A program made the position numbers and the translations under genes. DNA of 64,000 nt from Candidatus Omnitrophota bacterium (GTDB taxonomy: Bacteria > Omnitrophota > Gorgyraeia > B26-G9), in NCBI GenBank assembly GCA_043826565.1, contig JBDRPX010000004.1:103604-167603 (forward strand). Direction: 5' to 3'. Positions 4,193-33,198 of the stretch are shown here, piece by piece; the first letter of the stretch is position 1; every line of letters starts with the position of its first letter. The notes under the pieces were generated by a model, which had not been told where the DNA came from, ran no database searches, and worked only from the letters and a program-made list of their open reading frames with translations.

Positions 4193-4274
4193 CAATTTAT
4201 GTAACTGCTTTATATATTTAATGTTACAGTAGTGAATATAACTAAATGAGTAATATAAAAAGTTTTATAAAGCA

Positions 4275-4303
4275 TTGACTTATATGGGAAAATGTGGTAC
4301 ACT
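4275..4303 (+). promoter_or_regulatory. sigma70-like promoter
   Basis: TTGACT at 4275-4280 is followed by a 17-nt spacer and TACACT at 4298-4303. This places the TSS a few nt before the riboswitch aptamer. Confidence 0.4.
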
Positions 4304-4307
4304 TGTA

Positions 4308-4392
4308 TTAGTGGAAAAAGGCAAACTCGTGGTAACGCGAGGGCGCAAAGCCGTGCACCCCGAAAATTCGGGGCAGGCAGGTTGCCCGATGA
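4308..4392 (+). ncRNA. candidate c-di-GMP-I (GEMM) riboswitch aptamer
   Basis: The segment GGCAAAC-[CUCGUG GUAA CGCGAG]-GG-CGCAAAGCC-[GUGCACCCCG AAAAUU CGGGGCAGGCAGG]-UUGCCCGAUG matches the GEMM-I layout, including the hallmark GGCAAAC and CGCAAAGCC strings. The first helix is capped by a GNRA tetraloop. The 3' UUGCC pairs with the 5' GGCAA to form P1. Confidence 0.6.
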
Positions 4393-4406
4393 ATTAATTT
4401 ACGTTA

Positions 4407-4437
4407 CCCAGGCAGGAGTTTGCCTGGGATTTTTTTT
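4407..4437 (+). terminator. intrinsic terminator (riboswitch expression platform)
   Basis: Stem CCCAGGCA / TGCCTGGG with loop GGAGTT, followed by a T8 run. The 3' arm (AGTTTGCC) is also complementary to the aptamer's 5' P1 strand (GGCAAACT), which allows alternative folds. Confidence 0.65.
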
Positions 4438-4536
4438 CGGAATATTAAAAAGTGCCAGGTATGAATGGGGAAAATCAGTAAAAGTGCCAGGCATAATCAG
4501 GGATGAACGTAATATATAAAGGAGTTGGAGCGGAAA

Positions 4537-5694
4537 ATGCCCAGGTTGCCAAGAGTTTACATTGAAAATTCAGTTTATTATGTAACATGTAAGGGATTGC
4601 AAAACCAGGTAATTTTTAAAGACGCGAGGGACTACGAAATGTACTTTGAATTGTTGAAAAAATACAAAGAACAATACGCAGTCAAACTTTATGCTTATAC
4701 TTTAATGCATAATCATTTGCATTTATTAATGGAAGTTGATAAAGAAGCCAGTATTTCCACAATTATGCACGATTTGACCTCTTCTTACACAAAATATTTT
4801 AATGGCCGCTATGACCGCAAAGGCCATTTATTCCGAGAAAGATTTAAAGCCGCTGTTGTAGAAAAAAATCCGCAAATCCTTTTGGACCTTACCGCATATA
4901 TCCACCTCAATCCCAAGCGATTGAACTTAGGCATACAAGGACGTACGTATCCGTATAGCAGTTATGAGCTTTATCTGGACTATTCCCCAAAGTCCGATAG
5001 AGGGCTGGCTATAAAAAATGAAATTGAAAGTATTGTTAATAAGCTGGTTGGCGAAAATTATGTTGAGTTTATGAACCGCATGCAGGATAACGCGGAGTTC
5101 CAGAAAAATTATAAAAAACTTCAGCGTAAAGGAATGATCGGCTCAGGTGAATTTATGAGCAGAGTTAAAGAAGCTATCGAGCAGCAGCGAAGTGAGCCCG
5201 AGGAACCGGAGTTAGAAGAAAAAATATTACATTCTAAGAATGTTCTTATGAACACGGGAGTGGCGGTATTGCTTTTGAGCATAAGCGCGGGGGGCGTTTA
5301 TTTATATTTTAATTACGCAAATAAGGTATTGGATAAACCCCAGATACCTGTTGCGACAGTTGAGCTGCAGTTGAAAGACCTGAATAATACCGAGTGGCAG
5401 GTGGAAATGTTCAATATGGATGGGTCCCTGGCCCGCGCGGATATTTTAAGTTTTATGCAGGGGAAATTCAGTTCGGCATATCTTTCTCAGTTTGAATTCC
5501 CGCATATTAATTATTCTGTTGTTTTTGAAGGAAATAAAATAATTTGGGAAACAATGCAGACATCGGCAACCGGGACCGCGTCATGGCGCGGTGAAGTGGT
5601 AGACGGCGAGATGCTGGGAATGGTCAGCCTGCGGCAGGAAGGGAAAGAACCGCAGGATTTTTCTTTTAAGAGTCTAAAATACAGGAGGAGATAA
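4537..5694 (+). CDS. HUH Y1-transposase-like (IS200/RayT-like) domain protein fused to a TM helix and an uncharacterised C-terminal domain
   Basis: HNHLHLLME (the HuH motif) and AYIHLNPKR (catalytic Tyr + NP) match the IS200-like/REP-associated tyrosine transposase fold. A TM segment VLMNTGVAVLLLSISAGGVYLYF follows, then ~120 unrecognised residues. ATG 4537 lies 12 nt after AAGGAG; the track's 4525 start is a TTG adjacent to the RBS. Confidence 0.6.
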   Translation: MPRLPRVYIENSVYYVTCKGLQNQVIFKDARDYEMYFELLKKYKEQYAVKLYAYTLMHNHLHLLMEVDKEASISTIMHDLTSSYTKYFNGRYDRKGHLFRERFKAAVVEKNPQILLDLTAYIHLNPKRLNLGIQGRTYPYSSYELYLDYSPKSDRGLAIKNEIESIVNKLVGENYVEFMNRMQDNAEFQKNYKKLQRKGMIGSGEFMSRVKEAIEQQRSEPEEPELEEKILHSKNVLMNTGVAVLLLSISAGGVYLYFNYANKVLDKPQIPVATVELQLKDLNNTEWQVEMFNMDGSLARADILSFMQGKFSSAYLSQFEFPHINYSVVFEGNKIIWETMQTSATGTASWRGEVVDGEMLGMVSLRQEGKEPQDFSFKSLKYRRR

Positions 5695-5695
5695 G

Positions 5696-6133
5696 ATGAA
5701 GGTTGTTAATTTAAATAAGCTTATTACTATCGGAATGATCAGCGTTTTTTTTATCAGCTTTTTGCAGACCGCGGTGTTTGCCGAGAAAAAAGACAGGAAA
5801 AATCCGGAGCCGCTACGCACTAATTCTACTATTAATGAAGTGGTCGGAGAAGTAGCAAGTTTTGATGGAGAAATTATTGTTATTACTTACGGAGACCCTG
5901 CTCAAACCGGGGAATCTTTTGATATGTCGATCAGTATTGAACCGGAAAATTTAGAATTAAACCATATAAAAAGTTTAGATCAAATAAAAAAGTGGAATAC
6001 CGTCAGGATCAGCTATGAAGTAATCACTGAGGAGTATGCCGAAGAAAAAGTTAAAACGCGTAATGTCGCCAGGGCGATAAGCTTTATAAAGGCTGGCAAG
6101 CCGCCGGTTTATGAGCCGGAACAGGATGAATAA
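5696..6133 (+). CDS. small secreted protein of unknown function
   Basis: N-terminal signal peptide (LITIGMISVFFISFLQTAVFA) and an AGGAGG RBS. Its start is 1 nt after the upstream stop, suggesting translational coupling. Confidence 0.55.
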   Translation: MKVVNLNKLITIGMISVFFISFLQTAVFAEKKDRKNPEPLRTNSTINEVVGEVASFDGEIIVITYGDPAQTGESFDMSISIEPENLELNHIKSLDQIKKWNTVRISYEVITEEYAEEKVKTRNVARAISFIKAGKPPVYEPEQDE

Positions 6134-6193
6134 AAGAAAGGGCAAAAGCCCTCTAACACGAATAATTTAGTAATACTAACTGAGAGGTGTCGG

Positions 6194-9100
6194 ATGAAGA
6201 TGAAAAGATCAATAGTAGTTATGATGTGTATGGTTGTTTTTTTTACAATTCACTTTGCTGGTATTGATGATGCCAAAGCCTTTCAGATTAAAAGGGTGAT
6301 CAGGGGGTCCTATAGCCAGGCAATTGATGAGGAGGTAACAGTTGTTGATCTTACTTCTTTATTGGGCGGGGTGAACCTGGTTCCTGCGAAAACTATTCTT
6401 TTTTATACTATTGATCTTGATGATGAGGATGCCGAAGAGACTTTTACCAATGTAGCTTTAGACAGCCCTTCGGATCTGCTGATCAGCCGGTTTACCTCAG
6501 GTACGGGGCTTACAGTTAATTATGAACTTGTGGAGTTTGTTTCCGGGGTTAAAGTTATGCGCGGTCTTACCACTGTTCCGGAAACAGCAACGATTAAAAC
6601 TGTAACTTTACCTCAATCCATAATTGTTAATAAATCATATGTAACGGTTAATTCTAATGCTGTAAGAGGTTCTAATCTTAATGAAGAATTAAATACGTTT
6701 GCCGCGGAAATAGTTGATGAAACTACGGTCAGGTTCACAAGAACTGTTACTACTTCCCGATTTAATAATACTCTGGCTTATCAGGTTGTTTGTTTTGAAG
6801 GCCTTGATGGTTTAGGCGATGATGTCGTCTCAGTTCAGAAAGGGATAGATATTCTTCCTTCACCTGCCGGCGGGATGAGCCTTACTGTAGGTATAAATAG
6901 TGTTCAAACTGATAAATCTTTATTAATATTTTCAAGCCGGCCGGATACTCTTGCTGACGGTGATGAAGATATAATGTGTGTGGAGGGAATATTAAATGAT
7001 GCCGGCGGCGGAATGAGTGATGCGATACTTTTTAACCGTCAGGAAAATAATAATGATGATGTCACTTTATACTGGTTTGTAATTACTTTTAGTAATGAAA
7101 CTTTTGTTCAGAGTAAAACCCAAACCTTTATTTCTAATAGTAATCCCAACTTTACCATAGACACAGCAATTGTGCCCAGCCGCAGTTTTATTCAAGCATC
7201 TGTTTCGATTACCGGAGGCGGGACATCAGGTAAAGAAGAAACTACTCATGCCTTATATATTACTAATCCTACGACCATAGATACGCAGTGTTCCACAACC
7301 AGTGCTTATACTGTAAAACTTTCCTGGTTTGTAACGGAAATGCCGCCCTTAGAAGTTACTTATCCCAACGGCGAAGAAATTTTTGAAGTCGGAACAACAG
7401 AAAATATTACCTGGAATCATTCAGATGACGTTTTAAATACAGATTCAATGAGTATTGATCTTTCTATCAACAGCGGCAGTACGTATCCTTTAAATGTTAT
7501 AACCGGAGTTGACCCGACTTTAGATACATATGCCTGGAATATTCCCGCGGAAATAAGTTCAACCGGTATTATCGGAAATACCATAAGAGTTAAAATTACA
7601 GATACGACGATCAGCGCAAGAAATTTTGATACCTCAGACGCTGACTTTATAATAAAGGGAAGATTAATTATTGATCAGCCGCCGGACACCTGGCGTTTAG
7701 GCGAGACTCAAAATATAACCTGGGATGTACACGGTAGTTTAAATAGTTTACCTACAAACACTATGACGATTATGCTTTCTACGGATGGGGGCGGAAGCTT
7801 TGCTCATACTGTGAGTGCAGTGGCTGACCCGGGTGCCGGACAGTCTGATGGAAGTGCCGGCTCCGGAAGTTATGGGTGGACTATCCCATCAGATATGGAT
7901 GGTGAAAATTTAATCGGTACGGATAATCAAATAAAACTTATTCTTAATTACGACCCGGATGCGCCGAAGACAACAGTAACCAGTACAAGTTCTAATTTTG
8001 TTTTAAAAGGGCGAATTTTTAATGTTTCCCCGGCTAGTGATGAAACCTGGTTTTTGGGTGAAACAAAAAGTATTACCTGGGATAAAAATGGACACTTCGG
8101 CGCCGGTATTGCCGAGGGAACAGTAGATGTTTATTATTCCAGTAATGGCGGTTTGTCATATGGTACTATTGTTGCTGTAAGCCAACCTGCGGGGACAGAT
8201 GGTTCGGGGGGGAGTTATAATTGGACAATACCCAATAACACTCCTTTAGAAAATCCTGATTCGAAAATTAAAGTTTTTCAAACTACAGATACTTCGGTTT
8301 ATGGAGAAAGTGCTAATTTTTCTTTAATCTCATCACTTTTGCTGGATATTCCCAGCGGTACGGGAATTCTCTGGAAAGTGGGAACGGCTCATGATATTGA
8401 GTGGACAACTGCCGGTTCGGTTAGTATGGTTGACTTGCTCTATGATTCCGGCTCGGGTTATGTTTTAATTACACCTGCCGCGGGTATAGCTAATGCCGAT
8501 GTTTACAACTGGACAATTCCCGACGCTATAAGCAATAGCGTTAAGGTAAAAGTTCAGGATCACGATAATACGAATATATACGATGAGAGTGATAATTTAT
8601 TTTCCATAAAAGGATCAATAAGTGTTACCGAGCCTCATGCAACCGAAATTACACAAGTAAGTATAAATAAAGTTATTCAGTGGAATACTACGGGAAGTGT
8701 AGCCGGAACCGTAAACATTCGTTTGTCACAGAATGGCGGTTCTTCTTATGGGAGTATCATTAATTCAGTTGACGTTTCCAGCGGTTCGTATTCCTGGGCT
8801 CCGGTTGCCGGAGATATGGGTACTAATAATGTGATCAAAGTAGGGCTGCAGGGAGATGAAGACCCGGGAACCGGGACAGCCGGGGAAACAGGAGTTTTTG
8901 CCGTAGAAGCCAGTATTGACCTTACTTATCCGGATGCTTCCGGGTTAACGTATGGTATCGGAGATGAGGTTTATATCAAATGGACATCAAACCCCGCTGC
9001 GTTTGGAAACGTAAATATACGTTACTCAACGGATGGCGGATCTAATTATAATGGATTTATTGCCGACGGTGTTGCCTCAAATAATGTTCCCGGAGGAGAG

Positions 9101-12100
9101 ACAGAGATCGGATATAAGTGGACAATTCAGGATGTCGTGGGAATGGTGAGCCCGACTTGCCGTGTAAAAGTATATCAGGTTGGGAAATTAGCACAGGTGT
9201 ATAGCGAATCACAATATGATTTTAATGTTAAAGGTACTTTGAACTTAACCGCGCCGGATGGAGGAGAAACCTGGTATGTTGACCAGTTTGAAAGTATTAC
9301 CTGGACCAAAGGCGGAGATCTAGGAACTCTAAAACTTGCCTATTCAATTAACGGCGGTTCTGACGGGTATCCGGCGACGATCGCTACCAGTATAGATGCG
9401 GATGATCTTTCTTATCCTTGGCAGATCCCGGATGCTATTGGTACGCAGTTAAAAGTAAAAGCTATTCAGGAAACAGATACAACTACTAATGATGTATCCG
9501 TAGGGGTATTTACGATTAAAGGAAGATTTTCAATATCTGCTCCGGTGGGCGGCGAGACCTGGTATGTGGGAACTCAGGAAAATATTGGGTGGACCACTTA
9601 TGGCACCATTGATAAGGTAAATTTGTATTATTCTACTGACGGCGGCGGAACATTCGGTTCTACGATCGCTACCAATCTTACCAATGCCGAAGGATATCTG
9701 TGGACAATTCCGGACGCGATAGATAATGATATCAGAGTAAGAGTAGAAAGTTTCTATGATAATACAGTTGCTCATGAATCAACCGGTAACTTTACTATTA
9801 AAGGAAGAGTTTTTGTTACCGCGCCGAACGGCCCGGAAGAATGGCGGGTCGGAGCAACGGAAAATATTACCTGGACGGTGTATGGAGCTATTGGAAATGT
9901 GGAGATTCGATATTCCACTAACAGCGGTGCCAGCTATGATACAGTTATCGTAGCCAGTACTCCGGCATTGAACCAGACTTATGCCTGGACCAATATCCCG
10001 GATGAGATCGGCACAAGTTTAAAAGTGAAAATTACCAGTATCTCAGACGGTACAGTTAATGATGAGTCAGACGCTGATTTTGAATTAAAAGGGGTTTTAA
10101 CTTTAACCGCGCCTAATGGTGCTCAGATATGGAACGTTGGGAATTCCGAAAATATTACCTGGACTAAACAGGGAACTTTGGGGAATGTGGAACTGCGTTT
10201 TTCCACGGACAGCGGCGTGACTTTCCCGGTTGGCAATGTGATCGCGACCGGTGTAGCGGCAACCGCAACACCGCATCCCTGGACAATCCCGGATAAGATC
10301 GGAGATAAGCTGCGGGTAAGAGTTATGTTATTAAATGACCCGACAAATGTTTATGATGATTCTGATAATGATTTTGAGATCAAAGGTAAGTTGACATTGA
10401 CGGCACCGAACGGGCCGGAAGAGTGGGGAGTGGGGACAAGCCAGGCAATTACCTGGGCCCGTTTTGGAAGTATCGCGAATGTTAAACTGGAATATTCCAC
10501 CGACGGGGGCAATACATTTCCTAACACGATTACAGATTCAACAAGTGCTTCCGCGCAAACTTATAATTGGACGATTCCGGACGCGATCGGAACTTCTTTG
10601 CAGGTTAAGATCAGTGATGCATCAGATGGCGCGGTGAGTGATACTTCTGATGCTAGTTTTGAAATTAAAGGCCGCTTAATATTACTGCATCCGAACGGCG
10701 CGGAAACCCTGGCGGTAAATCAGCCTTATACTATTGACTGGACAACTTATGGAACGATCAATAAAGTAAATCTCTATTATTCAATTAACGGCGGAAGCAG
10801 TTATGACGCGAATATTGTTTTAGCTTTAAATAATACCGGAAGTTATGGCTGGACAATTCCGGATGCTATCGGTTCGCAATTGCGCGTAAAGATTAATAAT
10901 GATGATGATACAACAGTCGAAGATGTGTCAAACGGTGATTTTACGATCAAAGGTTCGGTAACCTTGACCGCGCCGAATGGCGGTCAAACCTGGATCGTTG
11001 ACGATTCTCAGAATATTAGTTGGAGCAAACAGGGAAGTATCGGAACGGTGCAATTGGATTATTCGACTAATGGCGGAACCAGTTATGATTTTAGTATTGC
11101 TGCCGGGGTGGCTTCCGGGGATCTAAGCAAAGCCTGGACAATCCCGAACGCGATCAGCAATAATGTGAAAGTAAAAATTACTCAGGAATCTGATACTTCA
11201 GTTAATGATGAATCAAACGCGGCGTTTGAAATTAAAGGTTCAATACTTGTTACAGCTCCCAATGGCGCGGAATCATGGTCTATCGGCGGGACTGAAGATA
11301 TTACCTGGATACGCCATGGAAGCATTGGAAATATTCAGATCCTTTATTCAACTGACAGCGGTTCGACTTATCCGTTTACAGTGACCGGTTCAACAGACTC
11401 TTCGACACAGACATACAGCTGGGTGAACATCGCGGATACTCCATCGACAACCTGCCGTGTAAAGATGACTAGTTTGTCGGATTCCTCGGTTACTGATGAC
11501 TCAAATTCTAATTTCCGGATCAGGGCAAATATTACTTTGACCGCACCGAATGGATTAGAGGAATGGATCGTCGGGACAACTGAAAATATCACCTGGACCA
11601 AAACCGGTTCAATTCCTAATGTAGCTTTGGAATATTCACTTAACAGCGGATCGACTTATCCCAAAGCGATCGTGACAACTTCCGGTGAAGCTTTAAGTTA
11701 TACATGGACGATCCCGGATGATATTAGCGGCCTGGTGAGAGTACAGATCAGAAATACATCGGATGCGACGGTATCAGATACTTCTAATGCTGATTTCAGT
11801 ATTAAAGGGTCAGTAACCATGGAAAGTCCTGACGGCGGAGAAGTCTATGTTGTCGGTTCAGCCTATGATATTGAATGGTCATATGTCGGATCAATTCCGA
11901 ATGTAAAACTGGAATATTCTATAAACGGCGGGTCGACATTTCCCTATGAGATCATCGCGTCTACTCCGGCAGTTGCTTTAGCTTATTCCTGGACTGTTCC
12001 GGATACAATTACCGGACAGTTGGTAGTGAAAGTTTCTGATGCTGTAGATTCAACAGTTGATGATGATTCTGATGCTTATGCAAAGATCAGAGGTTCTTTA

Positions 12101-30100: not shown

Positions 30101-33013
30101 AGCGGCACGACTTATCCGAACGTGATTAACGCGTCTGCTCCAAATGGTGCCGGTGGTGCGGGAAGTTACAGCTATGCCTGGACCATTCCGGATGATATTT
30201 CACAAACAGTTCGGGTAAAAGTTGAAGATCCTAATGACAATACCGTGTTTGATATTTCTAATGCTAATTTGAAGATCCGGGGTAATCTGACTTTGACTTC
30301 TCCGAGTGGAGGAGAACGCTGGGTAACCAGAGAAGATAGAAATATTACCTGGACTACAGTTGGTTCTATTGCGAATGTAAGGCTAGAATATTCTATCAAT
30401 AGCGGAGCAACCTATCCGTTTGTAATCGCGGTTTCCACGATAAACGCTGATTTTTACACTTGGTCAGTTCCGGATAACCGTTATCCTACAGTAAGAGTCA
30501 GACTTGAAGACGCCAGCGATGATACAGTAGCTGATGAATCAAATGCTGATTTTACGATTGATTACTACTCAGTTACCTGGGAACTTCGTGATTTGTTGAC
30601 CAATGAACATATTAGTCAGCTTGTAGTCGATGGTAGTTCAACTAAAGGTGATGGATGGGCAACTGACAATATGCCGGGTAATCCGGGTGTGCCGCTTGGT
30701 TCTCCGGTAACGGTGGAATTGCCGTATGGTTTGTGGACCATGGTCTGGACATGTGTAGGGTATGGTGATAAGCAGTATACGTTTGAGCTTAATGCTGATA
30801 AGGTATTAGATCCGCTGTATATGGAAACTACGGTAATCCATATCTGGCGTGCATATTCAGAGTTTACCTATGAAACAGGAACCGATACTTTGAAAGTGAC
30901 TTCCTGGCTGGAACGTGACGGATATGTAGTATCAGGTGCGGAACATGTGGATCTGTTTATTTATGAGGAAACCGGTGATTTGATCAACCGGGTCACTCGT
31001 AACTACATAGATAAAGATGGTGTGCCGCAGACTGTAAATTGTACGATGACTTCCTCAACTCCGAACACTGCGGGATTTTTCAACCTTAATTGGGCAAGTT
31101 GCGGTTTGCAGGATCAGAAAGTATATTCAGTAGTAACGTATATTACCAATGCCAGCGGCGCGCTGTTTAAAACGCCAACATCGTTCAGTATTACTGCGAC
31201 TAAGCAGTTGAAAGAAACGCAGGATGCAATGACAACTTTGACCGGAACGACATTCCCGGGTTTCCAGACATCAATTGAAAATACGATCAATACAGCCACG
31301 GCCCAGCAGACGGCAACGATCAATGCCGCTACAGCAGCCCAAAAGCAAACTTTAGAAACCGGTATTGATGAGCAGAAGACAATGATTGAGACTAAGATGA
31401 ACCAGCAGACAGAATTGATCGATACAAAGACCGATGAAATGCAGGCATCCATGGATGCGACGCTGACTAGTTTTGAAGAAAGAACCGATGAAACTGTTAA
31501 GCAGCTGCAGACTGGTGCGGATACGGCAATTAAGGCCGGTCAGGAACTCGAAGCAACGGCTAAACGTCAGTCCGGTGAATTAATCCTGCCGAATACTGTA
31601 TTGGCTGGTGATAGAGTAGAAATCCGCTATCGTAACGATTCCCGGCTGATGCCGTTAATGGATATTATCACTTATGACGGAACCTTGGTTTACAATGCTC
31701 AGCCGTTGATGGAGTCTGCGACAACTGCCGGTTTGTATGGGTTTGACCTTCTTGCCGATGGAAAAACATTCAAGTCGGGAAAAGCGGTTACCGTAGTGGT
31801 AAGAGAAATTAAAACAGGGAATTTGGAAGCCGGATCATTCATGGTAGAGGCAACATCATTAACATCGATTGAAGGTCTGCTGGCAATGAATCCGCAGATG
31901 AAATCCGATGTGCAGGAAGCTTTGAGTTCTATTCAGTCGGTTCAGGGTTCCTTGGCTACCGGCGGTGATGTGGGTAAGGCCTTGAATCAATTACAGCAGA
32001 CAATGGATGATCTGCCGGCTATCCTTGCCGATGAAGTATTCTCCGAAGGCACTGCCGGCGGTGAGATGGTTACTAATATCAATGCCATGGTCGAAAAATT
32101 GATCGGCTTAGCTAGTGAAGAAGGCTATGACATAAGCGGACTGGTAGAAGATGCTTTAAGTAATTCGCCGACGATTAAGGAGATCAGAGAGAAGACAGAA
32201 AAGATCAAGAGCGCGGTTAAATTCCTGCAGGCTTTGTTTGAGCATAAATTCGGCGGTATGGAAGATGAGCCGATTGTTTCGACATCAATGTCCAGCGGCA
32301 GCATCATCCTGAATGTTGTGGCGGCTAATCCGTCCAGCGCGAAACCGCAAAATACAAAAGTAAAAGTATATCTGCCGCAGGAGGTAACGCCTAAAGATAT
32401 TATGGATACCGGCGGATTAGATGTGGAATTTGATGCGACTAAATCTATCTACTATGTATACAAAGATAATATACAACTTGCAGAAAAAGAAATAAGAGTG
32501 TATAAAGTAGAAATAGAAGATATCTGGATGATTTCGCAGTCGACACTTGATATCCTGAAACTAAGATCCGTGAAGTTAGCAGAAGCTTTTGCTAAGACCG
32601 AACATGCCGAACAGATAAGTGAATTAGCAGACCGGATTGCTTCTCAGTTAGAGGATATTAGTGTATCGCAGGCAGATGCTAATGTCAGCAGAGAGCGCCA
32701 TATCGGGATCTATCGTACCAATATGCAGACAATTGAAAGCATAAAGGAAGAACTTACCGATATGGAAAAACTCTCTGTTCAGAAACCGGGAGAAGTCGGA
32801 GCACTGACAAAGTCGATGACGGTGAAGATCATTCTGACGGTAATAGTGTTTATCGCCTTATTGGCCGGTGTATTCTTCTTTACCTGGAATAGAGCCGCGA
32901 GCGCGACAAAAGGGACTTTAGATAAAGCGAAACAGTTTTCTTTCCCCGGAGGTGAAGAGGAGGCTGAAGACGCAGATTCCGACAGAGAAGTTAAAAAGAA
33001 AAAAAGAAAATAG
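6194..33013 (+). CDS. giant repetitive surface protein (8,939 aa): signal peptide, unique N-terminal domain, ~80 tandem beta-sandwich-like modules, coiled-coil domain, C-terminal TM anchor with a charged tail
   Basis: A single uninterrupted ORF of 26,820 nt with a GAGAGGTG RBS. N-terminus MKMKRSIVVMMCMVVFFTIHFAG is a signal peptide. The repeat consensus is TAPNGGExWxVGxxxNITWTxTGSIxNVKLEYSTDGGxTYPNxIxASTxAxxxTYxWTIPDxIGxxLRVKVTDxxDxxVxDxSxxNFxIKG. C-terminal TM is ILTVIVFIALLAGVFFFTW, followed by EEEAEDADSDREVKKKKRK. Confidence 0.8.
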   Translation: MKMKRSIVVMMCMVVFFTIHFAGIDDAKAFQIKRVIRGSYSQAIDEEVTVVDLTSLLGGVNLVPAKTILFYTIDLDDEDAEETFTNVALDSPSDLLISRFTSGTGLTVNYELVEFVSGVKVMRGLTTVPETATIKTVTLPQSIIVNKSYVTVNSNAVRGSNLNEELNTFAAEIVDETTVRFTRTVTTSRFNNTLAYQVVCFEGLDGLGDDVVSVQKGIDILPSPAGGMSLTVGINSVQTDKSLLIFSSRPDTLADGDEDIMCVEGILNDAGGGMSDAILFNRQENNNDDVTLYWFVITFSNETFVQSKTQTFISNSNPNFTIDTAIVPSRSFIQASVSITGGGTSGKEETTHALYITNPTTIDTQCSTTSAYTVKLSWFVTEMPPLEVTYPNGEEIFEVGTTENITWNHSDDVLNTDSMSIDLSINSGSTYPLNVITGVDPTLDTYAWNIPAEISSTGIIGNTIRVKITDTTISARNFDTSDADFIIKGRLIIDQPPDTWRLGETQNITWDVHGSLNSLPTNTMTIMLSTDGGGSFAHTVSAVADPGAGQSDGSAGSGSYGWTIPSDMDGENLIGTDNQIKLILNYDPDAPKTTVTSTSSNFVLKGRIFNVSPASDETWFLGETKSITWDKNGHFGAGIAEGTVDVYYSSNGGLSYGTIVAVSQPAGTDGSGGSYNWTIPNNTPLENPDSKIKVFQTTDTSVYGESANFSLISSLLLDIPSGTGILWKVGTAHDIEWTTAGSVSMVDLLYDSGSGYVLITPAAGIANADVYNWTIPDAISNSVKVKVQDHDNTNIYDESDNLFSIKGSISVTEPHATEITQVSINKVIQWNTTGSVAGTVNIRLSQNGGSSYGSIINSVDVSSGSYSWAPVAGDMGTNNVIKVGLQGDEDPGTGTAGETGVFAVEASIDLTYPDASGLTYGIGDEVYIKWTSNPAAFGNVNIRYSTDGGSNYNGFIADGVASNNVPGGETEIGYKWTIQDVVGMVSPTCRVKVYQVGKLAQVYSESQYDFNVKGTLNLTAPDGGETWYVDQFESITWTKGGDLGTLKLAYSINGGSDGYPATIATSIDADDLSYPWQIPDAIGTQLKVKAIQETDTTTNDVSVGVFTIKGRFSISAPVGGETWYVGTQENIGWTTYGTIDKVNLYYSTDGGGTFGSTIATNLTNAEGYLWTIPDAIDNDIRVRVESFYDNTVAHESTGNFTIKGRVFVTAPNGPEEWRVGATENITWTVYGAIGNVEIRYSTNSGASYDTVIVASTPALNQTYAWTNIPDEIGTSLKVKITSISDGTVNDESDADFELKGVLTLTAPNGAQIWNVGNSENITWTKQGTLGNVELRFSTDSGVTFPVGNVIATGVAATATPHPWTIPDKIGDKLRVRVMLLNDPTNVYDDSDNDFEIKGKLTLTAPNGPEEWGVGTSQAITWARFGSIANVKLEYSTDGGNTFPNTITDSTSASAQTYNWTIPDAIGTSLQVKISDASDGAVSDTSDASFEIKGRLILLHPNGAETLAVNQPYTIDWTTYGTINKVNLYYSINGGSSYDANIVLALNNTGSYGWTIPDAIGSQLRVKINNDDDTTVEDVSNGDFTIKGSVTLTAPNGGQTWIVDDSQNISWSKQGSIGTVQLDYSTNGGTSYDFSIAAGVASGDLSKAWTIPNAISNNVKVKITQESDTSVNDESNAAFEIKGSILVTAPNGAESWSIGGTEDITWIRHGSIGNIQILYSTDSGSTYPFTVTGSTDSSTQTYSWVNIADTPSTTCRVKMTSLSDSSVTDDSNSNFRIRANITLTAPNGLEEWIVGTTENITWTKTGSIPNVALEYSLNSGSTYPKAIVTTSGEALSYTWTIPDDISGLVRVQIRNTSDATVSDTSNADFSIKGSVTMESPDGGEVYVVGSAYDIEWSYVGSIPNVKLEYSINGGSTFPYEIIASTPAVALAYSWTVPDTITGQLVVKVSDAVDSTVDDDSDAYAKIRGSLTITSPNGTESWIIDDIHAVTWTRTGSLGNAKLEYSTDAGATYPNVIIGTIATNLLTHNWTVPDDPSIQVKVKITSLDDSTVTDSSNANFTIKGSLNLTAPDGPETWIVGTTEAITWTKLGSLNLVTLEYSTNGGTTYPNVINNSVSAAALSYNWLIPDVIGTQLRVRITSNDNASVTDVSAANFEIKGSVTLTAPNGSEIWFVGESRNITWTHNGAIGNVSLKYSTDGGSTYPTTITTGVAATNLTYGWTVPDNIGTQLRVEITSVNDSAVTDESNNNFTIKGILLLTSPNGTEEWIVGSSHNITWNRTGSIANVKLEYSTDGGTSYPNEIIASTDAAAGSYGWTIPDSIDTDIRVRVSDALDSSVNDSSNANFTIKGSVTLTAPNGAENWVVASHENITWTKTGTIPTVELRYSLNGGTSYDTVINATVTGSNLTYDWTIPDDISATVKLKITNNNDSTVYDTSNANFKIIGNLVVVAPNGTEEWVVGTSENITWTRTGSIANVKIDYSINSGSTYPNAVVASTGAAGLSYGWTIPNSVYKTIRVRVADASDVNVYDVSNADFTIMPGFQITAPNGSEVWTVANSEDITWITTGSCTNVKLGYSTNSGSTYTDIIASTPNTETYGWTIPDDLSISCKVKVTDVDNANAQDETNGLFKIRGNLTITVPNGAESWDVADVENITWTRFGSIAAAKLELSKDGGSTYPVLIIASTDASLLTYAWTIPDQLTTQGRIKITNTADSTVYDVSNANFAIKGAVTLAAPNGGQDLVVGSAYNITWTRFGSILNVKLEYSTNGGTTYPNLIIAATDATTETYGWGIPDAIGSQLRVRITDVDNSLVSDTSDANFSIKGALELTAPVGGEIWFVNNIEAITWTRTGSIANVKLEYSTDGGSTYPNTIAATVTASLQTYAWTIPDAIGSQLRVKITDTSNATVTDESGSNFYIKGKLTLSAPNGGQTWVVGELRNITWVRTGSIANVKLDYSTDAGTTYPNAIIASTDASTGTYGWTVADAIGTSLKVRVEDATDNTVSDVSDLVFEIKGSLVLTAPNGGQSWVVDTSENITWTKTGTIPLVTLEYSVNGGSSYDTVINNSVTGSDLTYAWTIPDSIGATVKVRITNNDDGTVYDTSNANFKIIGALAVTAPNGTEEWVVGTSENITWTRTGSIANVKIDYSINSGATYPNAVVASTGAAGLSYSWTIPNSVYKTIRVKVADASDVNVYDVSNADFTIMPGFAITAPNGGEVWSVSDSEDITWITTGSCTNVKLEYSTNSGSTYTDIIASTPNTETYGWTIPDNLSISCKVRISDVDNPNAIDTTDGLFKIRGALTLTSPNGFESWDVASVHNITWARFGSVANVKLELSKNSGSTYPVLIIGSTDASILSYSWTIPDQLTTQGRVKITDTSDSTVFDSSNDDFGIKGAVTLTAPNGGQDLVVGSAYNITWTRFGSVLNVKLEYSTNGGTTYPNLIIAATDATTGTYGWGIPDEIGSQLRVKITDAANSLVFDTSDANFSIKGNLLLNTPNGGDIWFVNNIENITWTRTGSIANVKLEYSTNGGSTYPNTIAATVTASLQTYAWTIPDAIGSQLRVKITDTSNSTVTDESNADFYIKGKLVVNVPNGGQTWIVGESRNITWTRTGSIANVKLDYSTDAGTTYPNVIIASTDASTGTYSWTVPDAIGANLKVRVEDATDNTVVDVSDAVFEIKGSLTLTAPNGGQSWVVDTSENITWTKTGTIANVELRYSIDGGTGYDYVIIASTPGANLTYAWTIPDDIGATVKVKVTDVSDSSVYDTSNANFKIVGALAVTAPNGTEEWVVGTSENITWTRTGSITNVKIDYSINSGATYPNAVVASTGAAGLSYSWTIPNSVYKTVRVRVADASDVNIYDVSDANFTIMPSFAITAPNGGEVWDVASSRDIEWTTTGDCTNVKLEYSVNSGSTYTDIIALTPNTEIYSWTIPDNLSISCKIRISDVDNTNAIDTTDGLFKIRGALTLTAPNGFESWDVADVENITWTRFGSVANVKLELSKDSGSTYPVMIIASTDASLLTYAWTIPDELTTTGRVKITSTADSTVLDSSNNNFAIKGSLLLTAPNGAEELVVGNAFNVTWNRFGSIMSVKLEYSTNSGTTYPNLIIAATDATTGTYGWGVPDDLSITVRVKVSDVDNALVYDTSDANFIIKGSLTLTAPNGGNIWFVNDVQNITWTKTGSIANVKLEYSTDAGSTYPNTIAATVDAALGTPYAWTIPDAIGSQLMVKVTDTSNATVTDVSNGTFYIKGKLVLNAPNGGQVWVVGESRSITWTRTGSISNVKLDYSTDGGTTYPNAIIASTDASTGTYGWTVADAIGASLKVRVSDAADSTVNDVSDAVFEIKGSILLTAPNGSEVWEVNSVQNITWTKTGTIPTVELRYSKNAGTSYDYIINASVSGAALTYAWTVPDEIGATTRVRITNNDDTSVYDTSNSNFKIVGVLVVTSPNGGQEWVVGTSQNITWTRTGSIANVKIDYSINSGSTFPLAVVASTPAAGLNYAWTIPNSVYKTIRIRVADASDVSVYDDSNADFTIMPAFNITAPDGGEVWDVASSQDITWATTGSCTNVKLEYSVNSGSTYNEIIASTPNTELYAWTIPDNLSISCKIRITDVDNPNAQDATTGLFKIRGALTLTAPNGFESWDVASVHNITWTRFGSVANVKLELSKDSGSTYPIMIIASTDASLLTYAWTIPDELTTTGRVKISSTADSSVLDSSNNDFAIKGAVTVTAPNGGQDLVVGSAYNITWTRFGSIMNVKLEYSTNSGTTYPNLIIAATDATTGTYGWGVPDDLSTTVRIKVTDAGNALVFDSSDADFTIKGSLTLTAPNGGNIWFVNDVQNITWTKTGSIPTVKLEYSIDGGSTYPNMIAATVDAALGTPYAWTIPDAIGSQLMVKVTDTSNSSVTDVSNSTFYIKGKLTLTAPNGGQTWIVGESRSITWSRIGSIANVKIDYSTDSGTTFPNAIVASTDASTGTYSWTVADAISTTLKIRVSDASDSTVYDDSNADFEIKGSLTLTVPNGSEVWTVNSVQNITWTKTGTISNVELRYSKDGGSAYDYVIIGSTPGADLSYAWTIPDDICSTTRVKITDVSDAAVYDNSNSNFKIVGAFGVTTPNGGQEWVVGKTESIVWIRTGSIANARIEYSINSGTAYGNLVIASTPAAGLSYGWTLPNAVYKTIRIKVMDASDISVFDTSDADFTIMPEFTITSPDGGEVWDVNSSEDITWSTTGDCTNVKLEYSVNSGSTYTDIIALTPNTETYAWTIPDNLSISCKIRISDVDNPNAIDTTDGLFKIRGALTLTSPNGFESWDVADIENVTWTRFGSVANVKLELSKDSGSTYPVLIIASTDASLLTYAWTIPDQLTINGRVKVTSTADSTVFDRSDADFAIKGALLLTAPNGGEELEVGVPTTVTWNRFGTILNVKLEYSTDAGLTFPGLIIAATPAGTGSYVWSVPDALSPEVRVKVTDVANSLVFDTSDADLTIKGKLTVGGPNGGEVWFVGESRNITWIRSGSIPTVKLEYSTNGGATYPNMIAPSYDASLLSYSWTVPDAISIQIRVKVTDIANTTVADSSNGDFTIKGSLILTAPNGGEEWVVNAVQNISWNRTGSIPTVKLEYSTDAGSTYPNTIIASTSAATGLYAWTIPDAIGTQLRVRISDTSDATVMDTSNLNFIIRGVLLLTAPNGGEAWQIATSKNITWSRTGSVGFVKLQYSLDGGVTFPTTIIASTDASTGTYAWTIPDNPCTTTKVKISDASDSVVADISDVNFKIIGDLTLTTPVGTEQWVIGGPQRKISWTMVGSIANVKLEYSINSGASYDYLINASTPAGALEYYWTIPDTATTTARVKITDASDISVGDTSPADFSIQADFTITAPNGAEVWIVGDSEDITWGTVGSVGNVKLAYSTDGGATYPNVIIASIGNTGTYGWTIPDALSATVRVKVSDVNDAQAFDDSDVNFKIRGDLVLTAPNGGETWIVASSHNVTWTRLGSIPTVKLEYSINGGLTYPNSIIASIAASLGTHNWTIPDNISNQVRVKVTDTSDSTVYDESNSNMFIKGSLTLTVPNGAEEWVVGTGENITWARVGSIANVKLEYSTNSGGTYPNTIIASTDASTGSYAWPIPDVLSTTLRVRVSDVTDVAVNDTSNANFMIKGDLELNSPNGGEIWYVGQSRSVTWTRTGSIASVKLEYSTDSGTTFPNTIISSTDASTGTYAWSVPDAISENLRVRVTDTSNATVFDDSNLDFTVKGVLLLNAPNGGETWVVAASQNITWTPTGTISNVKLEYSTDGGNTYPNTIIASTPGMVGTYAWTVADSIGANAKVRVSDAADASVYDVSNATFTIKGSLVVTSPNGAEVWGVATAHNITWSRTGSISTVKIEYSTDGGSTYPNTIAATADAATGSYGWTIPDDISSQVRVKITDNSDATVFDASNVNFKIVGILDLISPDGGEMWEVNTNHNITWTRVGSIANVRLDYSVNSGATYPNAIVASTPAGALSFTWTIPDAVSKTVRVRIADALDINVFDASTADMTIMAQFNITAPDGGEVWTVASSHDITWGTTGTVTTVVLDYSTDGGATYPNNITGSAANTGSFPWTIPDAISSQVKVRVSDYNNVDASGASDANFKIRGGVTVTSPNGSESWMVGNSQNITWSIIGSIANVKLEYSTDGGATYPFTIIGSVDATSGTYAWIIPDNISTSARVKVTDATDSTVYDTSNNNFIIRGGLIVNIPNGAEDWQIESVQNITWMRTGSIQNIKIEYSTNGGSTYPNVIVNSFDASLATYPWMIPDTITNLARVRITDVDNAAVYDTSDNNFKIKGALVVNTPNGAEVWEVTTSHAITWSRTGSISNIRLDYSTDSGATFPNAIAASLNAALGTYAWTIPDNISSAVRVRATNISDALVYDDSDADFKIVGQLLLSSPDGGEVWPVGSSQSVIWSPIGSIVNVKLDLSTNGGVSFPTVIAASLTASDGSYNWTVPDTISQTARIKVSDVSEPSIVFDTSDGNFKIRGDLLLTSPNGSEVWLINSNHNITWTRFGSITNARLEYSKDSGTTFPNLIVGSVDASLQTYNWLTPDDAGIQLRVRVSDAADSTVYDISDGNFIIRGGFSLTAPNGAERWAVGTEHDITWSTFGTIVNVRLTYSSNNGSTWTSIIGSTPNTDMYPWTIPDRISSQCLVKVADVVDADANDQSDAVFTIHGALTVTAPNGGEAWQVASGKTITWTRTGAVVNVKLEYSTNGGSTYPNLIVASTSGAAGTYAWTVPDAITDSVRVRISDADDALVIDTSDGNFKIVAGFSITAPNGGETLVVAASENITWTTLGTVGNVRLDYSTNAGTSWTIITATTINAETYPWTVPDAISEQCRVRVMDVTDSSAFDISNNNFKIRGNLTLTSPNGGEEWAVGTNQLITWSRVGSISTVMLEYSDNAGGIYVPITNNALNTGSYSWAVPDAITTQALVRITNVADLSVTDVSDGQFKIQGSFTLTSPNGGEAWFVGSSQNINWTWNGTVPFIKLELSTNGGSTYNLVSDNVANIGTYAWTIPDQVSGTCRIMISDATDADANDTSNGNFRIRCKFTIANPNGSEQWRVGQTRAINWSNVGTSSTVNLAYSRDGFGADSQTIATGIVNAGTHNWTIPDSISETVRVRVSDPTDAGAYDDSNNDFRITGDFTVTSPNGGEMWDVNSAHDITWTWQGTMPQVRIEYSTDGGASYPNIITATDNDGTYEWTVPDSITAQMRVRVSDLADLTAADNSNSNAKIKAQFLLIEPNGGEIFTVSDTTDITWTSVGTVPNVNLQYSTNGFITPVSIISATANDGSYTWTIPDAISTNVTVRVMSSTDNDAYDISNAAFKIQGDLAITAPNGGEQWAINQVNNITWNTTGSIANVQILYSINSGVSYPYSITASVANTNSYGWTVPDTATANARIRIIDVADATISDDSDANFRIQGYFSVTSPNGAESWIVNDVHNITWNWGGTLPFVHLSYSTDSGTTYPNVINASAPNGAGGAGSYSYAWTIPDDISQTVRVKVEDPNDNTVFDISNANLKIRGNLTLTSPSGGERWVTREDRNITWTTVGSIANVRLEYSINSGATYPFVIAVSTINADFYTWSVPDNRYPTVRVRLEDASDDTVADESNADFTIDYYSVTWELRDLLTNEHISQLVVDGSSTKGDGWATDNMPGNPGVPLGSPVTVELPYGLWTMVWTCVGYGDKQYTFELNADKVLDPLYMETTVIHIWRAYSEFTYETGTDTLKVTSWLERDGYVVSGAEHVDLFIYEETGDLINRVTRNYIDKDGVPQTVNCTMTSSTPNTAGFFNLNWASCGLQDQKVYSVVTYITNASGALFKTPTSFSITATKQLKETQDAMTTLTGTTFPGFQTSIENTINTATAQQTATINAATAAQKQTLETGIDEQKTMIETKMNQQTELIDTKTDEMQASMDATLTSFEERTDETVKQLQTGADTAIKAGQELEATAKRQSGELILPNTVLAGDRVEIRYRNDSRLMPLMDIITYDGTLVYNAQPLMESATTAGLYGFDLLADGKTFKSGKAVTVVVREIKTGNLEAGSFMVEATSLTSIEGLLAMNPQMKSDVQEALSSIQSVQGSLATGGDVGKALNQLQQTMDDLPAILADEVFSEGTAGGEMVTNINAMVEKLIGLASEEGYDISGLVEDALSNSPTIKEIREKTEKIKSAVKFLQALFEHKFGGMEDEPIVSTSMSSGSIILNVVAANPSSAKPQNTKVKVYLPQEVTPKDIMDTGGLDVEFDATKSIYYVYKDNIQLAEKEIRVYKVEIEDIWMISQSTLDILKLRSVKLAEAFAKTEHAEQISELADRIASQLEDISVSQADANVSRERHIGIYRTNMQTIESIKEELTDMEKLSVQKPGEVGALTKSMTVKIILTVIVFIALLAGVFFFTWNRAASATKGTLDKAKQFSFPGGEEEAEDADSDREVKKKKRK
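7340..30550 (+). repeat. intragenic tandem repeat array, ~285-nt (95-aa) unit in ~80 copies, with a ~1.99-kb (7-unit) super-repeat present ~5 times between ~13.5 and 23.4 kb
   Basis: Direct reading shows the same 95-aa module recurring. Blocks starting near 13500, 15480, 17465, 19450 and 21440 are nearly identical at the nucleotide level. Confidence 0.85.
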
Positions 33014-33198
33014 GATTTGATGTTAAGCAAGGAGGCGGACCATTGTCAGGATTAAGATGGCAGAGGGCAGATGACAGGAGTCAGTATTCAGAAAGTATAG
33101 TTCAGATATTTGGAAGCAAATGTTTGAAAAATATATTCTGTCTACTGGCTTCTTTTTTTCTGACTTCTGTTTTCTGATTTCTGTCTTCCGTAAAAAAT

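Follow-up and report, generated by a model that had tools for sequence, protein, structure and literature searches.

Cd1 of Clostridioides difficile, a class I cyclic di-GMP (c-di-GMP-I) riboswitch, is an OFF switch in front of a flagellar operon. Here, we analyze a 64-kb stretch of a metagenome-assembled genome of Candidatus Omnitrophota (the window; all coordinates are window positions), in which a promoter, a predicted c-di-GMP-I aptamer and an intrinsic terminator lie upstream of three genes, the last of them encoding a putative giant surface protein. At a probability of roughly 0.7, we propose that the region 4275-4437 is a canonical class I c-di-GMP riboswitch with its own promoter, which acts via its intrinsic terminator as an OFF switch controlling the three-gene operon. 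The succession of aptamer and intrinsic terminator resembles Cd1, as does the proposed logic, i.e., ligand-promoted termination of a long surface-structure operon. Unlike in Cd1, the competing pairing would involve the 5' core and the GNRA loop of the aptamer and the 3' arm plus left flank of the terminator, not the P1 3' strand and the 5' arm, and the direction of switching is in our case inferred.

With Vc2 of Vibrio cholerae, the reference for Rfam family RF01051, the window's RNA shares an architecture of three helices, a P1a capped by a GNRA loop, both cores (GGCAAAC and CGCAAAGC) and equivalents of G20, A47 and C92 (residue roles and numbering after PMC11218506). It differs in scoring slightly better on RF03167, in that several relatives carry large extra hairpins (in P1a, or between C44 and G45), and in its phylum and downstream gene set, for neither of which we found a published riboswitch report. 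Bc1 of Bacillus thuringiensis possesses a long expression platform with a second terminator and a Zur site between the terminators (PMC11218506). Our leader is likewise that of a predicted c-di-GMP-I riboswitch with a long platform bearing extra elements; unlike in Bc1, these are paired palindromic repeats 13-16 nucleotides (nt) past the U tract, and there is no second terminator. Control of the LapA/LapD/LapG type is post-translational and employs a periplasmic protease and an inner-membrane c-di-GMP receptor. Such c-di-GMP-controlled large adhesins (LapA/LapD/LapG; Vibrio cholerae, PMC6890996) resemble the present case in that a second messenger governs a very large surface protein, whereas here control is proposed at transcription elongation and probably has the opposite sign.

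Giant genes of Omnitrophota have been described (West-Roberts et al. 2023 bioRxiv; a 2026 complete-genome preprint). The giant gene of the window shares with them the phylum, a length of more than 25 kb, the proximity to type II secretion/type IV pilus and PilZ genes, and the topology of a signal peptide plus a transmembrane (TM) segment. Archaeovorins contain numerous TM regions together with SecA DEAD, HEAT and similar domains, and Dockerin-type giants contain Dockerin/thrombospondin repeats (West-Roberts 2023); the window's protein belongs to neither type, as it lacks multiple TM segments and SecA/DEAD or Dockerin features. The words 'riboswitch', 'c-di-GMP' (written 'cyclic di-GMP') and 'transposase' do not occur in the text of West-Roberts 2023, nor does 'riboswitch' in the 2026 preprint, and neither of these two preprints describes an IS200-type/HUH gene upstream of the giants. 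A full-text literature search yielded no account of a c-di-GMP riboswitch together with Omnitrophota, a giant adhesin or a tyrosine transposase. An earlier sequence-only reading of the window had taken the triad of riboswitch, membrane-anchored HUH-domain gene and giant gene to be an undescribed system, and we found no published description of it. While the riboswitch itself belongs to a known class, its association with a phylum-conserved module (promoter, aptamer, terminator, leader repeats and the three proteins) is undescribed in the literature searched. The elements on which the argument depends are as follows.

4275-4303, + strand: sigma-70-type promoter, TTGACT-17-TACACT with TG before the -10 box (consensus scan, 9/12 matches)
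4311-4390, + strand: predicted class I c-di-GMP (GEMM-I) aptamer (Rfam match, own covariance model, covariation, nucleotide mapping)
4319-4336, + strand: proposed 5' strand of an antiterminator, AGGCAAACUC plus GGUAAC from the top of P1a and its GNRA loop (sequence and folding)
4403-4426, + strand: proposed 3' partners of the antiterminator, GUUACC at 4403-4408 (with 4331-4336) and GAGUUUGCCU at 4416-4425 (with 4319-4328) (sequence, forced fold, duplex z-score)
4407-4437, + strand: intrinsic terminator, CCCAGGCAG / GAGU / UUGCCUGGG, then A and U8 (consensus scan, folding)
4537-5694, + strand: gene for a 385-amino-acid (aa) HUH-domain protein with a TM helix, hereafter HUH-TM (Pfam, AlphaFold (AF2), Foldseek, profile alignment)
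5696-6133, + strand: gene for a small secreted protein of 145 aa, with a signal peptide and a conserved beta-rich domain of ~85 aa (sequence analysis, tblastn)
6194-33013, + strand: giant gene of 26.8 kb, 8,939 aa (table of open reading frames (ORFs), Pfam, tblastn)

Aptamer, terminator and direction of switching

We searched Rfam both with a cmscan over the entire 64-kb window and with an added permissive local scan of 4200-4560. The former returned a single match at or above threshold, at 4311-4390 on the + strand in clan CL00126 (c-di-GMP-I); the latter returned nothing else noteworthy. For comparison, relatives were collected by a profile search with a 38-sequence HUH-TM alignment, allowing one genome per species. 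Out of 185 relatives, the best 80 loci (L001-L080) of ~20 kb each were used, which together with the window amounted to 1.27 Mb scanned on both strands. Strict regular expressions caught the aptamer in only 10 and later 27 loci, so that a covariance model was required; we built one (R1) from 37 insertion-free orthologous aptamers. It places the window's aptamer at 4310-4392 with 85 bits and gives 77 matches in the 1.27 Mb, all on the + strand and located upstream of the HUH-TM start in the window and in 74 of the 80 loci; about half of these matches lie outside the seed alignment. Two of the six loci without a match have no upstream sequence. Thus, in 74 of 78 testable related loci the aptamer and terminator directly precede the gene order HUH-TM, small secreted protein, giant gene, which is the synteny that the sequence-only reading had suggested looking for. 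In 65 of the 74 tabulated leaders (the window plus 73 loci), ~90-260 nt separate the aptamer end from the start codon; in the other nine, the distance is ~270-440 nt. Because the same aptamer precedes the same gene in 74 further genomes and is almost absent elsewhere in the 1.27 Mb, it is not a chance match.

The architecture of the aptamer is reflected in covariation. Within the 37-aptamer seed alignment, the named structure has 90.2% of its cells paired compared to 77.5% in shuffles, and 14 pairs are altered on both sides (127 such cells, 42 in shuffles). None of 500 shuffles matched the observed measures, and controls with slid partners fell to 29-46% paired. P1a and P1b are 94-98% paired, and 12 of their 18 pairs are altered on both sides; P1, which is poorly resolved in our alignment, is only 48% paired there. 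In the window, P1a spans 4326-4341 and carries a GUAA loop (GNRA across relatives), and P1b spans 4349-4383. Judging from the window sequence, the cmscan alignment and the 37-aptamer alignment, the equivalents of G20, A47 and C92 of Vc2 are G4320, A4347 and C4385. The A47-A49 and C92 equivalents are invariant across the 37 aligned aptamers, and the G20 equivalent is a G in the window. Among the 15 orthologous leaders passing Rfam thresholds, 14 were called as RF01051 with 53-66 bits (gathering score 35) and the remaining one as RF03167. Given A4347, G4320 and C4385, the invariant contacts of the orthologues and their RF01051 calls, the window's RNA reads as a canonical member of the c-di-GMP-I family. 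The GEMM/c-di-GMP-I-like aptamer that had been proposed at 4308-4392 is thereby borne out by the clan match, the covariation and the ligand-contacting nucleotides.

The flanking signals predicted from the window alone also hold. The promoter is present at 4275-4303, places the predicted transcription start at ~4310-4311, i.e., at the 5' edge of the aptamer, and is kept upstream of the aptamer in relatives as TTGAC-N17-TAtACT. The stem of the terminator (4407-4428) comprises 9 base pairs (bp), 6 of them GC, with a hairpin energy of -16.2 kcal/mol, and the U8 tract ends at 4437. Nearly all of the 74 leaders have a similar hairpin with a run of U6-9 after the aptamer.

How might ligand binding be coupled to this terminator? 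The sequence-only reading had pointed to complementarity between the 5' P1 strand of the aptamer and the terminator 3' arm. The complementarity is real: AGGCAAACUC (4319-4328) and GAGUUUGCCU (4416-4425) form 10 contiguous Watson-Crick pairs. Its aptamer side, in contrast to what had been assumed, is not P1; the segment holds the G20 equivalent, two junction pairs and the start of P1a, i.e., the junction of the ligand pocket and the P1a 5' strand, while GAGUUUGCCU represents the terminator loop and 3' arm. The duplex has an energy of -17.6 kcal/mol compared to -7.3 for shuffled arms (z -5.4), and none of 200 shuffles was as good. GUUACC at 4403-4408, which is conserved in close relatives, could pair with 4331-4336, and both pairings nest into one alternative helix with the terminator 5' arm looped out. 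With the terminator starting 17 nt past the aptamer end (4390) and this pairing excluding the terminator, the region has the makings of an expression platform. A classical antiterminator, in which the P1 3' strand or the linker pairs with the terminator 5' arm, was rejected, as no such complementarity was found.

Folding of the leader gave a minimum free energy (MFE) structure of -50.1 kcal/mol with the terminator and a near-native aptamer. Forcing the 4319-4328/4416-4425 helix yielded -48.5 kcal/mol, with the P1a 5' strand also pairing the linker, and the native aptamer plus terminator, without ligand energy, yielded -43.8 kcal/mol. Across relatives, the linker between aptamer and terminator measures 15-40 nt in all leaders, and the two never overlap. 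In 45% of 66 loci (5% expected), complementarity of the terminator loop and 3' arm with the 5' part of the aptamer is better than in 95% of composition-preserving shuffles, the window being the strongest case. GUUUGCC in the terminator loop and 3' arm is conserved even where its 5'-arm partner varies. The register of the antiterminator varies by lineage and its topology recurs. In the L011 group, for example, CUCAGG of the P1a 5' strand is complementary to CCUGAG in the 3' arm, and a GUUA preceding the terminator matches the loop.

We propose the following mechanism. When c-di-GMP is bound, the pocket (G4320, A4347 and C4385), the pairs G4321-C4346 and C4322-G4345 and the P1a GNRA loop would be locked in the aptamer; the hairpin 4407-4428 would then form and RNA polymerase would halt at the U tract. 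Without ligand, AGGCAAACUC and GGUAAC (4331-4336) would be free to pair with GAGUUUGCCU and GUUACC, and this pairing would capture the terminator 3' arm and permit read-through into the operon. The antiterminator draws on precisely those aptamer parts that should be single-stranded in this state. High c-di-GMP would consequently turn the giant-protein operon off. We consider an OFF switch, in which c-di-GMP promotes termination, the probable direction, if by a limited measure. The sequence-only reading had held that the direction could not be read from sequence; linker spacing and complementarity together do allow it to be predicted. It had also invoked the classic adhesin logic, in which high c-di-GMP turns the adhesin on, and the predicted sign is opposite to this.

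An ON switch, in which c-di-GMP binding blocks termination and high c-di-GMP induces the giant surface protein, would fit riboswitches of the ON type that exist before adhesin or pilus genes (Bc2; class II in C. difficile). The nearest-neighbor energies, which favor the terminator fold without ligand, would also suit a design that is off by default and turned on by ligand. Such a design requires the bound aptamer to sequester the terminator. The aptamer (to 4390), even with an extended P1 (to ~4402), stays clear of 4407-4428, and the terminator has no conserved alternative partners other than those within the aptamer core, where they are unavailable when ligand is bound. Since the ligand-bound aptamer leaves the terminator free to form, we regard the ON design as unlikely.

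Extent of the transcription unit and ligand class

For the OFF switch to govern the giant protein, transcription has to extend through all three genes. The coordinates and the spacers of 1 nt and 60 nt given by the sequence-only reading are exact (ORF table). HUH-TM begins at a conserved MPRLPR start at 4537, the mechanical ORF start being a TTG at 4525. In most loci, the small gene starts -3 to +4 nt from the HUH-TM stop, i.e., the two overlap or abut, and the gap before the giant gene measures 0-25 nt, placing the 60 nt of the window at the long end. More than 50 genomes keep these tight or overlapping junctions. No locus contains a match to the riboswitch-promoter consensus in the interval from the HUH-TM stop to the start of the giant gene, and a T6+ run occurs there in only two loci, both without a called small ORF. 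The gap in the window holds one structured element.

6137-6154, + strand: short hairpin with a GGGC-AAAA-GCCC core and no U tract on the + strand (consensus scan)

This hairpin is unconvincing as a terminator because it lacks a + strand U tail, which, together with the absence of terminator-like signals from the junctions of relatives, agrees with the previous view that no convincing terminator separates the genes. Downstream of HUH-TM, a short ORF is followed by a stop-free frame in essentially every locus with more than 1.5 kb of downstream sequence, usually running to the end of the contig or locus (1,200 to >3,300 aa). A consensus scan of 33014-33198, between the giant gene and the gene for ATP synthase epsilon, found no terminator-like site. 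Taken together, the comparison gives strong support, not proof, for one transcription unit comprising the three genes.

Alternatively, the riboswitch might control only HUH-TM, perhaps with the small gene, and the giant gene might be expressed mainly from its own promoter. The 60-nt gap, the longest among typical loci and the site of the hairpin, would leave room for such an arrangement, and the giant ORF itself contains a weak promoter-like match (6242-6271). The short gaps or overlaps in most of more than 50 loci, the lack of the promoter consensus and of T runs in the junctions and the missing U tail all speak against it. Moreover, promoter-like matches in 3900-7000 are fewer than expected from shuffles (6 versus 8.3), and riboswitch, HUH-TM and giant gene have stayed together throughout the phylum. 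We thus find a separate promoter doubtful.

It is less likely still that the aptamer senses another ligand, i.e., that of the GGC variant or 3',3'-cyclic GMP-AMP (3',3'-cGAMP). The best-scoring Rfam model for the window is RF03167 (c-di-GMP-I-GGC), with 60.1 bits (gathering score 59; E 1e-11, cmscan), and clan competition with RF03167 masks the window's RF01051 score. The outcome of the RF01051 scan that the sequence-only reading had proposed is a clan match in the window, with RF03167 as its top model by 1 bit, and orthologues that pass RF01051. The diagnostic position decides against the variant: RF03167 has a consensus G at model position 37, the A47 position, where the window carries A4347 and all 37 aligned relatives carry A. 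With the orthologues scoring as RF01051, we rejected the GGC identity and attribute the variant label to competition between models at a 1-bit margin. Automatic annotation would mislabel the window's aptamer as a GGC variant, 1.1 bits above the RF03167 threshold. An A at position 20 is the signature of GEMM-Ib, the 3',3'-cGAMP riboswitch. It is found in the leaders of L038, L043, L044, L057, L060, L061 and L063 (alignment A2 column 12), and these lineages may have switched ligand; the window carries G4320 at this position and C4385 at the C92 position.

Further variants occur among the relatives. Large insertions are present in the orthologous aptamers of L001, L003, L004 (~9725-9865), L005, L008, L009, L012, L017, L021, L023 and L042. 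They are of two types, with either two extra hairpins (~60 nt) between the C44 and G45 equivalents, or one or two extra hairpins within P1a that create a multi-way junction; these aptamers still score 34-59 bits on the covariance model. The aptamer upstream of HUH-TM has been lost in a few lineages (L056, ~9900-10000; L062; L047; L065). L070 contains a tandem duplication (7512-8641 and 9778-10930) of the riboswitch with a truncated HUH-TM of 307-309 aa that lacks the beta-barrel, followed by an 826-aa secreted protein and not by a giant gene. L071 (7675-9645) has a second c-di-GMP-I aptamer (8496-8586) in front of the gene for a secreted protein of 349 aa, and the gene before this aptamer encodes a stand-alone secreted beta-barrel of the HUH-TM type (WETMQT motif).

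Several points weigh against a riboswitch of canonical class that represses the whole operon. The terminator fold lies slightly below the antiterminator fold even without ligand (-50.1 and -48.5 kcal/mol), a difference within model error; with the terminator fold favored in this state, the switch would need to be kinetic. The proposed antiterminator helix spans a long range. Which upstream segment pairs best with the terminator arm depends on lineage, this being the 5' core in 13 loci (script count) and, by hand reading, the P1a strand in ~8 and the P1b 3' strand in ~13, and the complementarity with the aptamer 5' part is non-significant in 55% of the 66 loci. The window's own best Rfam model is the GGC variant, just 1.1 bits over threshold. 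The promoter test used one consensus, and promoters may also lie within coding sequence. Ligand binding and transcript structure, including co-transcription of the three genes, are predictions, as is the OFF direction. Finally, the repeats M1 and M2 downstream of the terminator point to a further layer of control.

HUH-TM and the leader repeats

HUH-TM combines a cytoplasmic RAYT-like Y1 HUH domain (residues ~1-135), a helical region, a TM helix (~239-261) and an extracytoplasmic eight-stranded beta-barrel (~285-384). Pfam Y1_Tnp (PF01797) matches with 1.3e-13 and 51.5 bits against a threshold of 23. The NCBIfam model REP_Tyr_transpos (NF047646) scores 63.8 bits, below its 80-bit cut-off, and NF033573 (IS200/IS605) scores 21 bits against a cut-off of 55. 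The AF2 model (pLDDT 82) shows an N-terminal alpha/beta domain, helices, the TM segment and the C-terminal barrel. A Foldseek search revealed E. coli TnpA_REP bound to a REP hairpin (4ER8) as the best PDB match of the N-terminal domain (TM-score 0.74, root mean square deviation 2.4 Å), and the barrel is similar in fold to the NHBA C-domain, avidin and FABP. In the profile alignment, H60/H62 coincide with the HUH motif of 4ER8 and Y121 with its catalytic Y115; H60-L-H62 is invariant and Y121 at least 90% conserved, being His in 3 of 38 members. The prediction that the first gene encodes a membrane-anchored HUH-domain protein is thus supported by Pfam, the AF2 model and the 4ER8 match.

In its N-terminal fold, HUH motif and Tyr115 equivalent, and in having an imperfect palindrome adjoining the gene, HUH-TM resembles the RAYT/TnpA_REP protein of E. 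coli. The score nevertheless remains below the equivalog cut-off, and unlike RAYTs, HUH-TM is fused to a TM helix and an extracytoplasmic barrel, its tyrosine is not invariant, and its gene is single-copy and syntenic and not scattered among REP arrays. The palindromic motif itself showed no REP-like scatter, being confined to this leader within the 64 kb and, with few exceptions, within the 20-kb loci. More than 400 full-length homologues are known from the search, nearly all of them from Omnitrophota. That the HUH gene is an IS200/IS605-type or RAYT mobile element standing beside the giant gene by chance, as the public annotation 'transposase' of an identical (100%) Candidatus Omnitrophota protein and the Y1_Tnp and 4ER8 matches might suggest, can be dismissed, since these matches speak for HUH origin while the gene order recurs in at least 50 species-level genomes at protein identities down to ~31%, always with fusion to TM helix and barrel, the transposase cut-offs of NCBIfam are not reached and 3 of 38 members have His in place of the catalytic Tyr.

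Between the terminator and HUH-TM lies a conserved repeat that the sequence-only reading did not mention, i.e., two copies of AAAGUGCCAGGCA (also written AAAGTGCCAGGCA) at a fixed distance.

4449-4462, + strand: leader repeat M1, AAAGUGCCAGGUAU, whose GUG begins 14 nt past the U tract
4481-4494, + strand: leader repeat M2, AAAGUGCCAGGCAU, able to pair with M1 through two 5-bp segments that flank an A.A mismatch

Exact copies of the 12-mer AAGTGCCAGGYA are present in 65 of the 80 loci, with few exceptions in this leader and on the + strand. In the window it is present at 4450-4461 and 4482-4493, with no other mismatch-free copy in 64 kb. Two copies are found in 50 of the 74 leaders and one in 21, and the first copy begins 13-16 nt past the U tract in 66 of 72. 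Because the repeat core GUGCC-A-GGCAC is palindromic, the two direct copies can pair with each other, and pairing of the M1:M2 type is contained in the MFE structure of 35 of 55 two-copy leaders, partly by construction. Three kinds of variant favor pairing or a symmetric binder: a central U in one copy (L022, L049), inversion of the second copy into a perfect hairpin of 13-16 bp (L044, L045), and a perfect 17-bp palindrome, AAAGTGCCAGGCACTTT, in the single-copy leaders L057, L060, L061 and L063. In L056, where aptamer and terminator are lost, the motif GTGCCAGGCAC is retained directly after the -10 box of the promoter. Copies also lie within lineage-specific tandem duplications.

The repeat has no match in Rfam, and across the leaders it shows no covariation with the terminator arms. 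A sigma-54 promoter in either orientation was rejected by reading, as GG-N10-GC spacing and a -12 element are absent, and so was a sigma-70 promoter, the conserved part being unlike a -10 box and the second copy too near the start codon. The repeat is also complementary to the 3' arm and U tract of the terminator (7 bp and additional A-U pairs), but pairing between them was discarded, since the repeat stays constant where the arms change (L001-4, L032-35, L075-79) and is transcribed after the termination decision. Resemblances to a CsrA site or to the 16S 530 loop (GUGCCAG) are short and unsupported. In the window and the close relatives L004, L005 and L008, the second repeat is followed (4495-4506 in the window) by AUCAGGGAUGA or CAAGGAUGA, whose GGA motif recalls sites of the CsrA type. 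The start of the HUH-TM coding sequence (AAAAUGCCCAGGUUGCC, 4533-4552; AAAAUGCCCAGG) resembles the leader repeat and the terminator arm, which may be coincidence or reflect pairing with the leader, and in a rough hand tally CCC seems over-used for Pro2 as compared to Pro5 at the coding starts of the loci.

The leader repeat may function at the RNA level as a hairpin, at the DNA level as an operator or roadblock, or as a REP-like site recognized by the neighboring RAYT-like domain. Developing the last option, we tentatively suggest that HUH-TM could be a domesticated, membrane-tethered RAYT. Its cytoplasmic domain would bind, in the form of RNA or single-stranded DNA, the M1:M2 palindrome (4449-4494) and perhaps also the hairpin of the terminator, either anchoring the 27-kb transcript or locus at the membrane, where the giant protein would be exported co-translationally, or feeding an extracytoplasmic signal sensed by the beta-barrel back to read-through. 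This idea is speculative and unlikely; if true, binding of a RAYT to the leader together with the riboswitch would make a two-input device for control and localization specific to giant secreted proteins that has not previously been described.

Partner proteins, genomic setting and meaning for Omnitrophota

The second gene product has the signal peptide that had been predicted, followed by the ~85-aa domain, and matches no Pfam or NCBIfam family; a homologue search with it found only itself. By tblastn, it was matched right after HUH-TM in 19 loci, and an ORF of 110-230 aa occupies the same place in 54 others. In L002, L006, L009, L012 and L028, a different, unrelated small secreted protein (175-222 aa, 'VPI..AR.RS.ELR.LN' type) follows HUH-TM, and L005, L007, L051 and L072 contain an extra gene of ~770 aa before the giant gene.

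The giant protein consists of an N-terminal signal peptide, ~8,800 aa of beta repeats rich in T, S, D, N and G, a helical C-terminal region, a TM segment (~8870-8895) and a short charged tail. Signal peptide and C-terminal TM segment are its only two hydrophobic segments, in agreement with the previous assignment as a giant surface protein, and its layout suggests a membrane-anchored surface fiber. Pfam gave only weak Ig-like, Reelin-B and Tli3 matches. The ORF is continuous, and no tandem repeats were found at the DNA level. Homology to the ORF in the same position was detected for residues 1-400 in 51 loci and for residues 400-1000 in 54 (tblastn).

Besides an F-type ATP synthase, the window encodes two type II secretion/type IV pilus clusters. 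Three type II secretion/type IV pilus ATPases contain MshEN domains (38750-40933, 50722-52380 and 53626-55332), and one of them has a C-terminal PilZ domain; from these domains, c-di-GMP receptors are predicted to be encoded nearby. Secretion loci and PilZ genes have also been reported near Omnitrophota giants (West-Roberts et al. 2023 bioRxiv). Our comparison connects the putative riboswitch with these nearby PilZ and MshEN receptors and defines two obligatory partner genes of the giant protein, encoding a RAYT-like membrane protein and a small secreted protein. It also exposes a second conserved element in the leader, and the insertion-bearing aptamers and A20 variants should be of interest to riboswitch specialists.

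Omnitrophota are uncultivated, ultra-small and partly predatory bacteria, and to our knowledge nothing is known about the regulation of their giant genes. Control of one class of these genes by c-di-GMP is a well-founded and testable proposal: RNA binding and single-round transcription can be assayed from synthetic DNA, without cultivation. The riboswitch would thus provide the first regulatory lead on Omnitrophota giant genes, whose expression may be gated by c-di-GMP and is probably repressed when its level is high.

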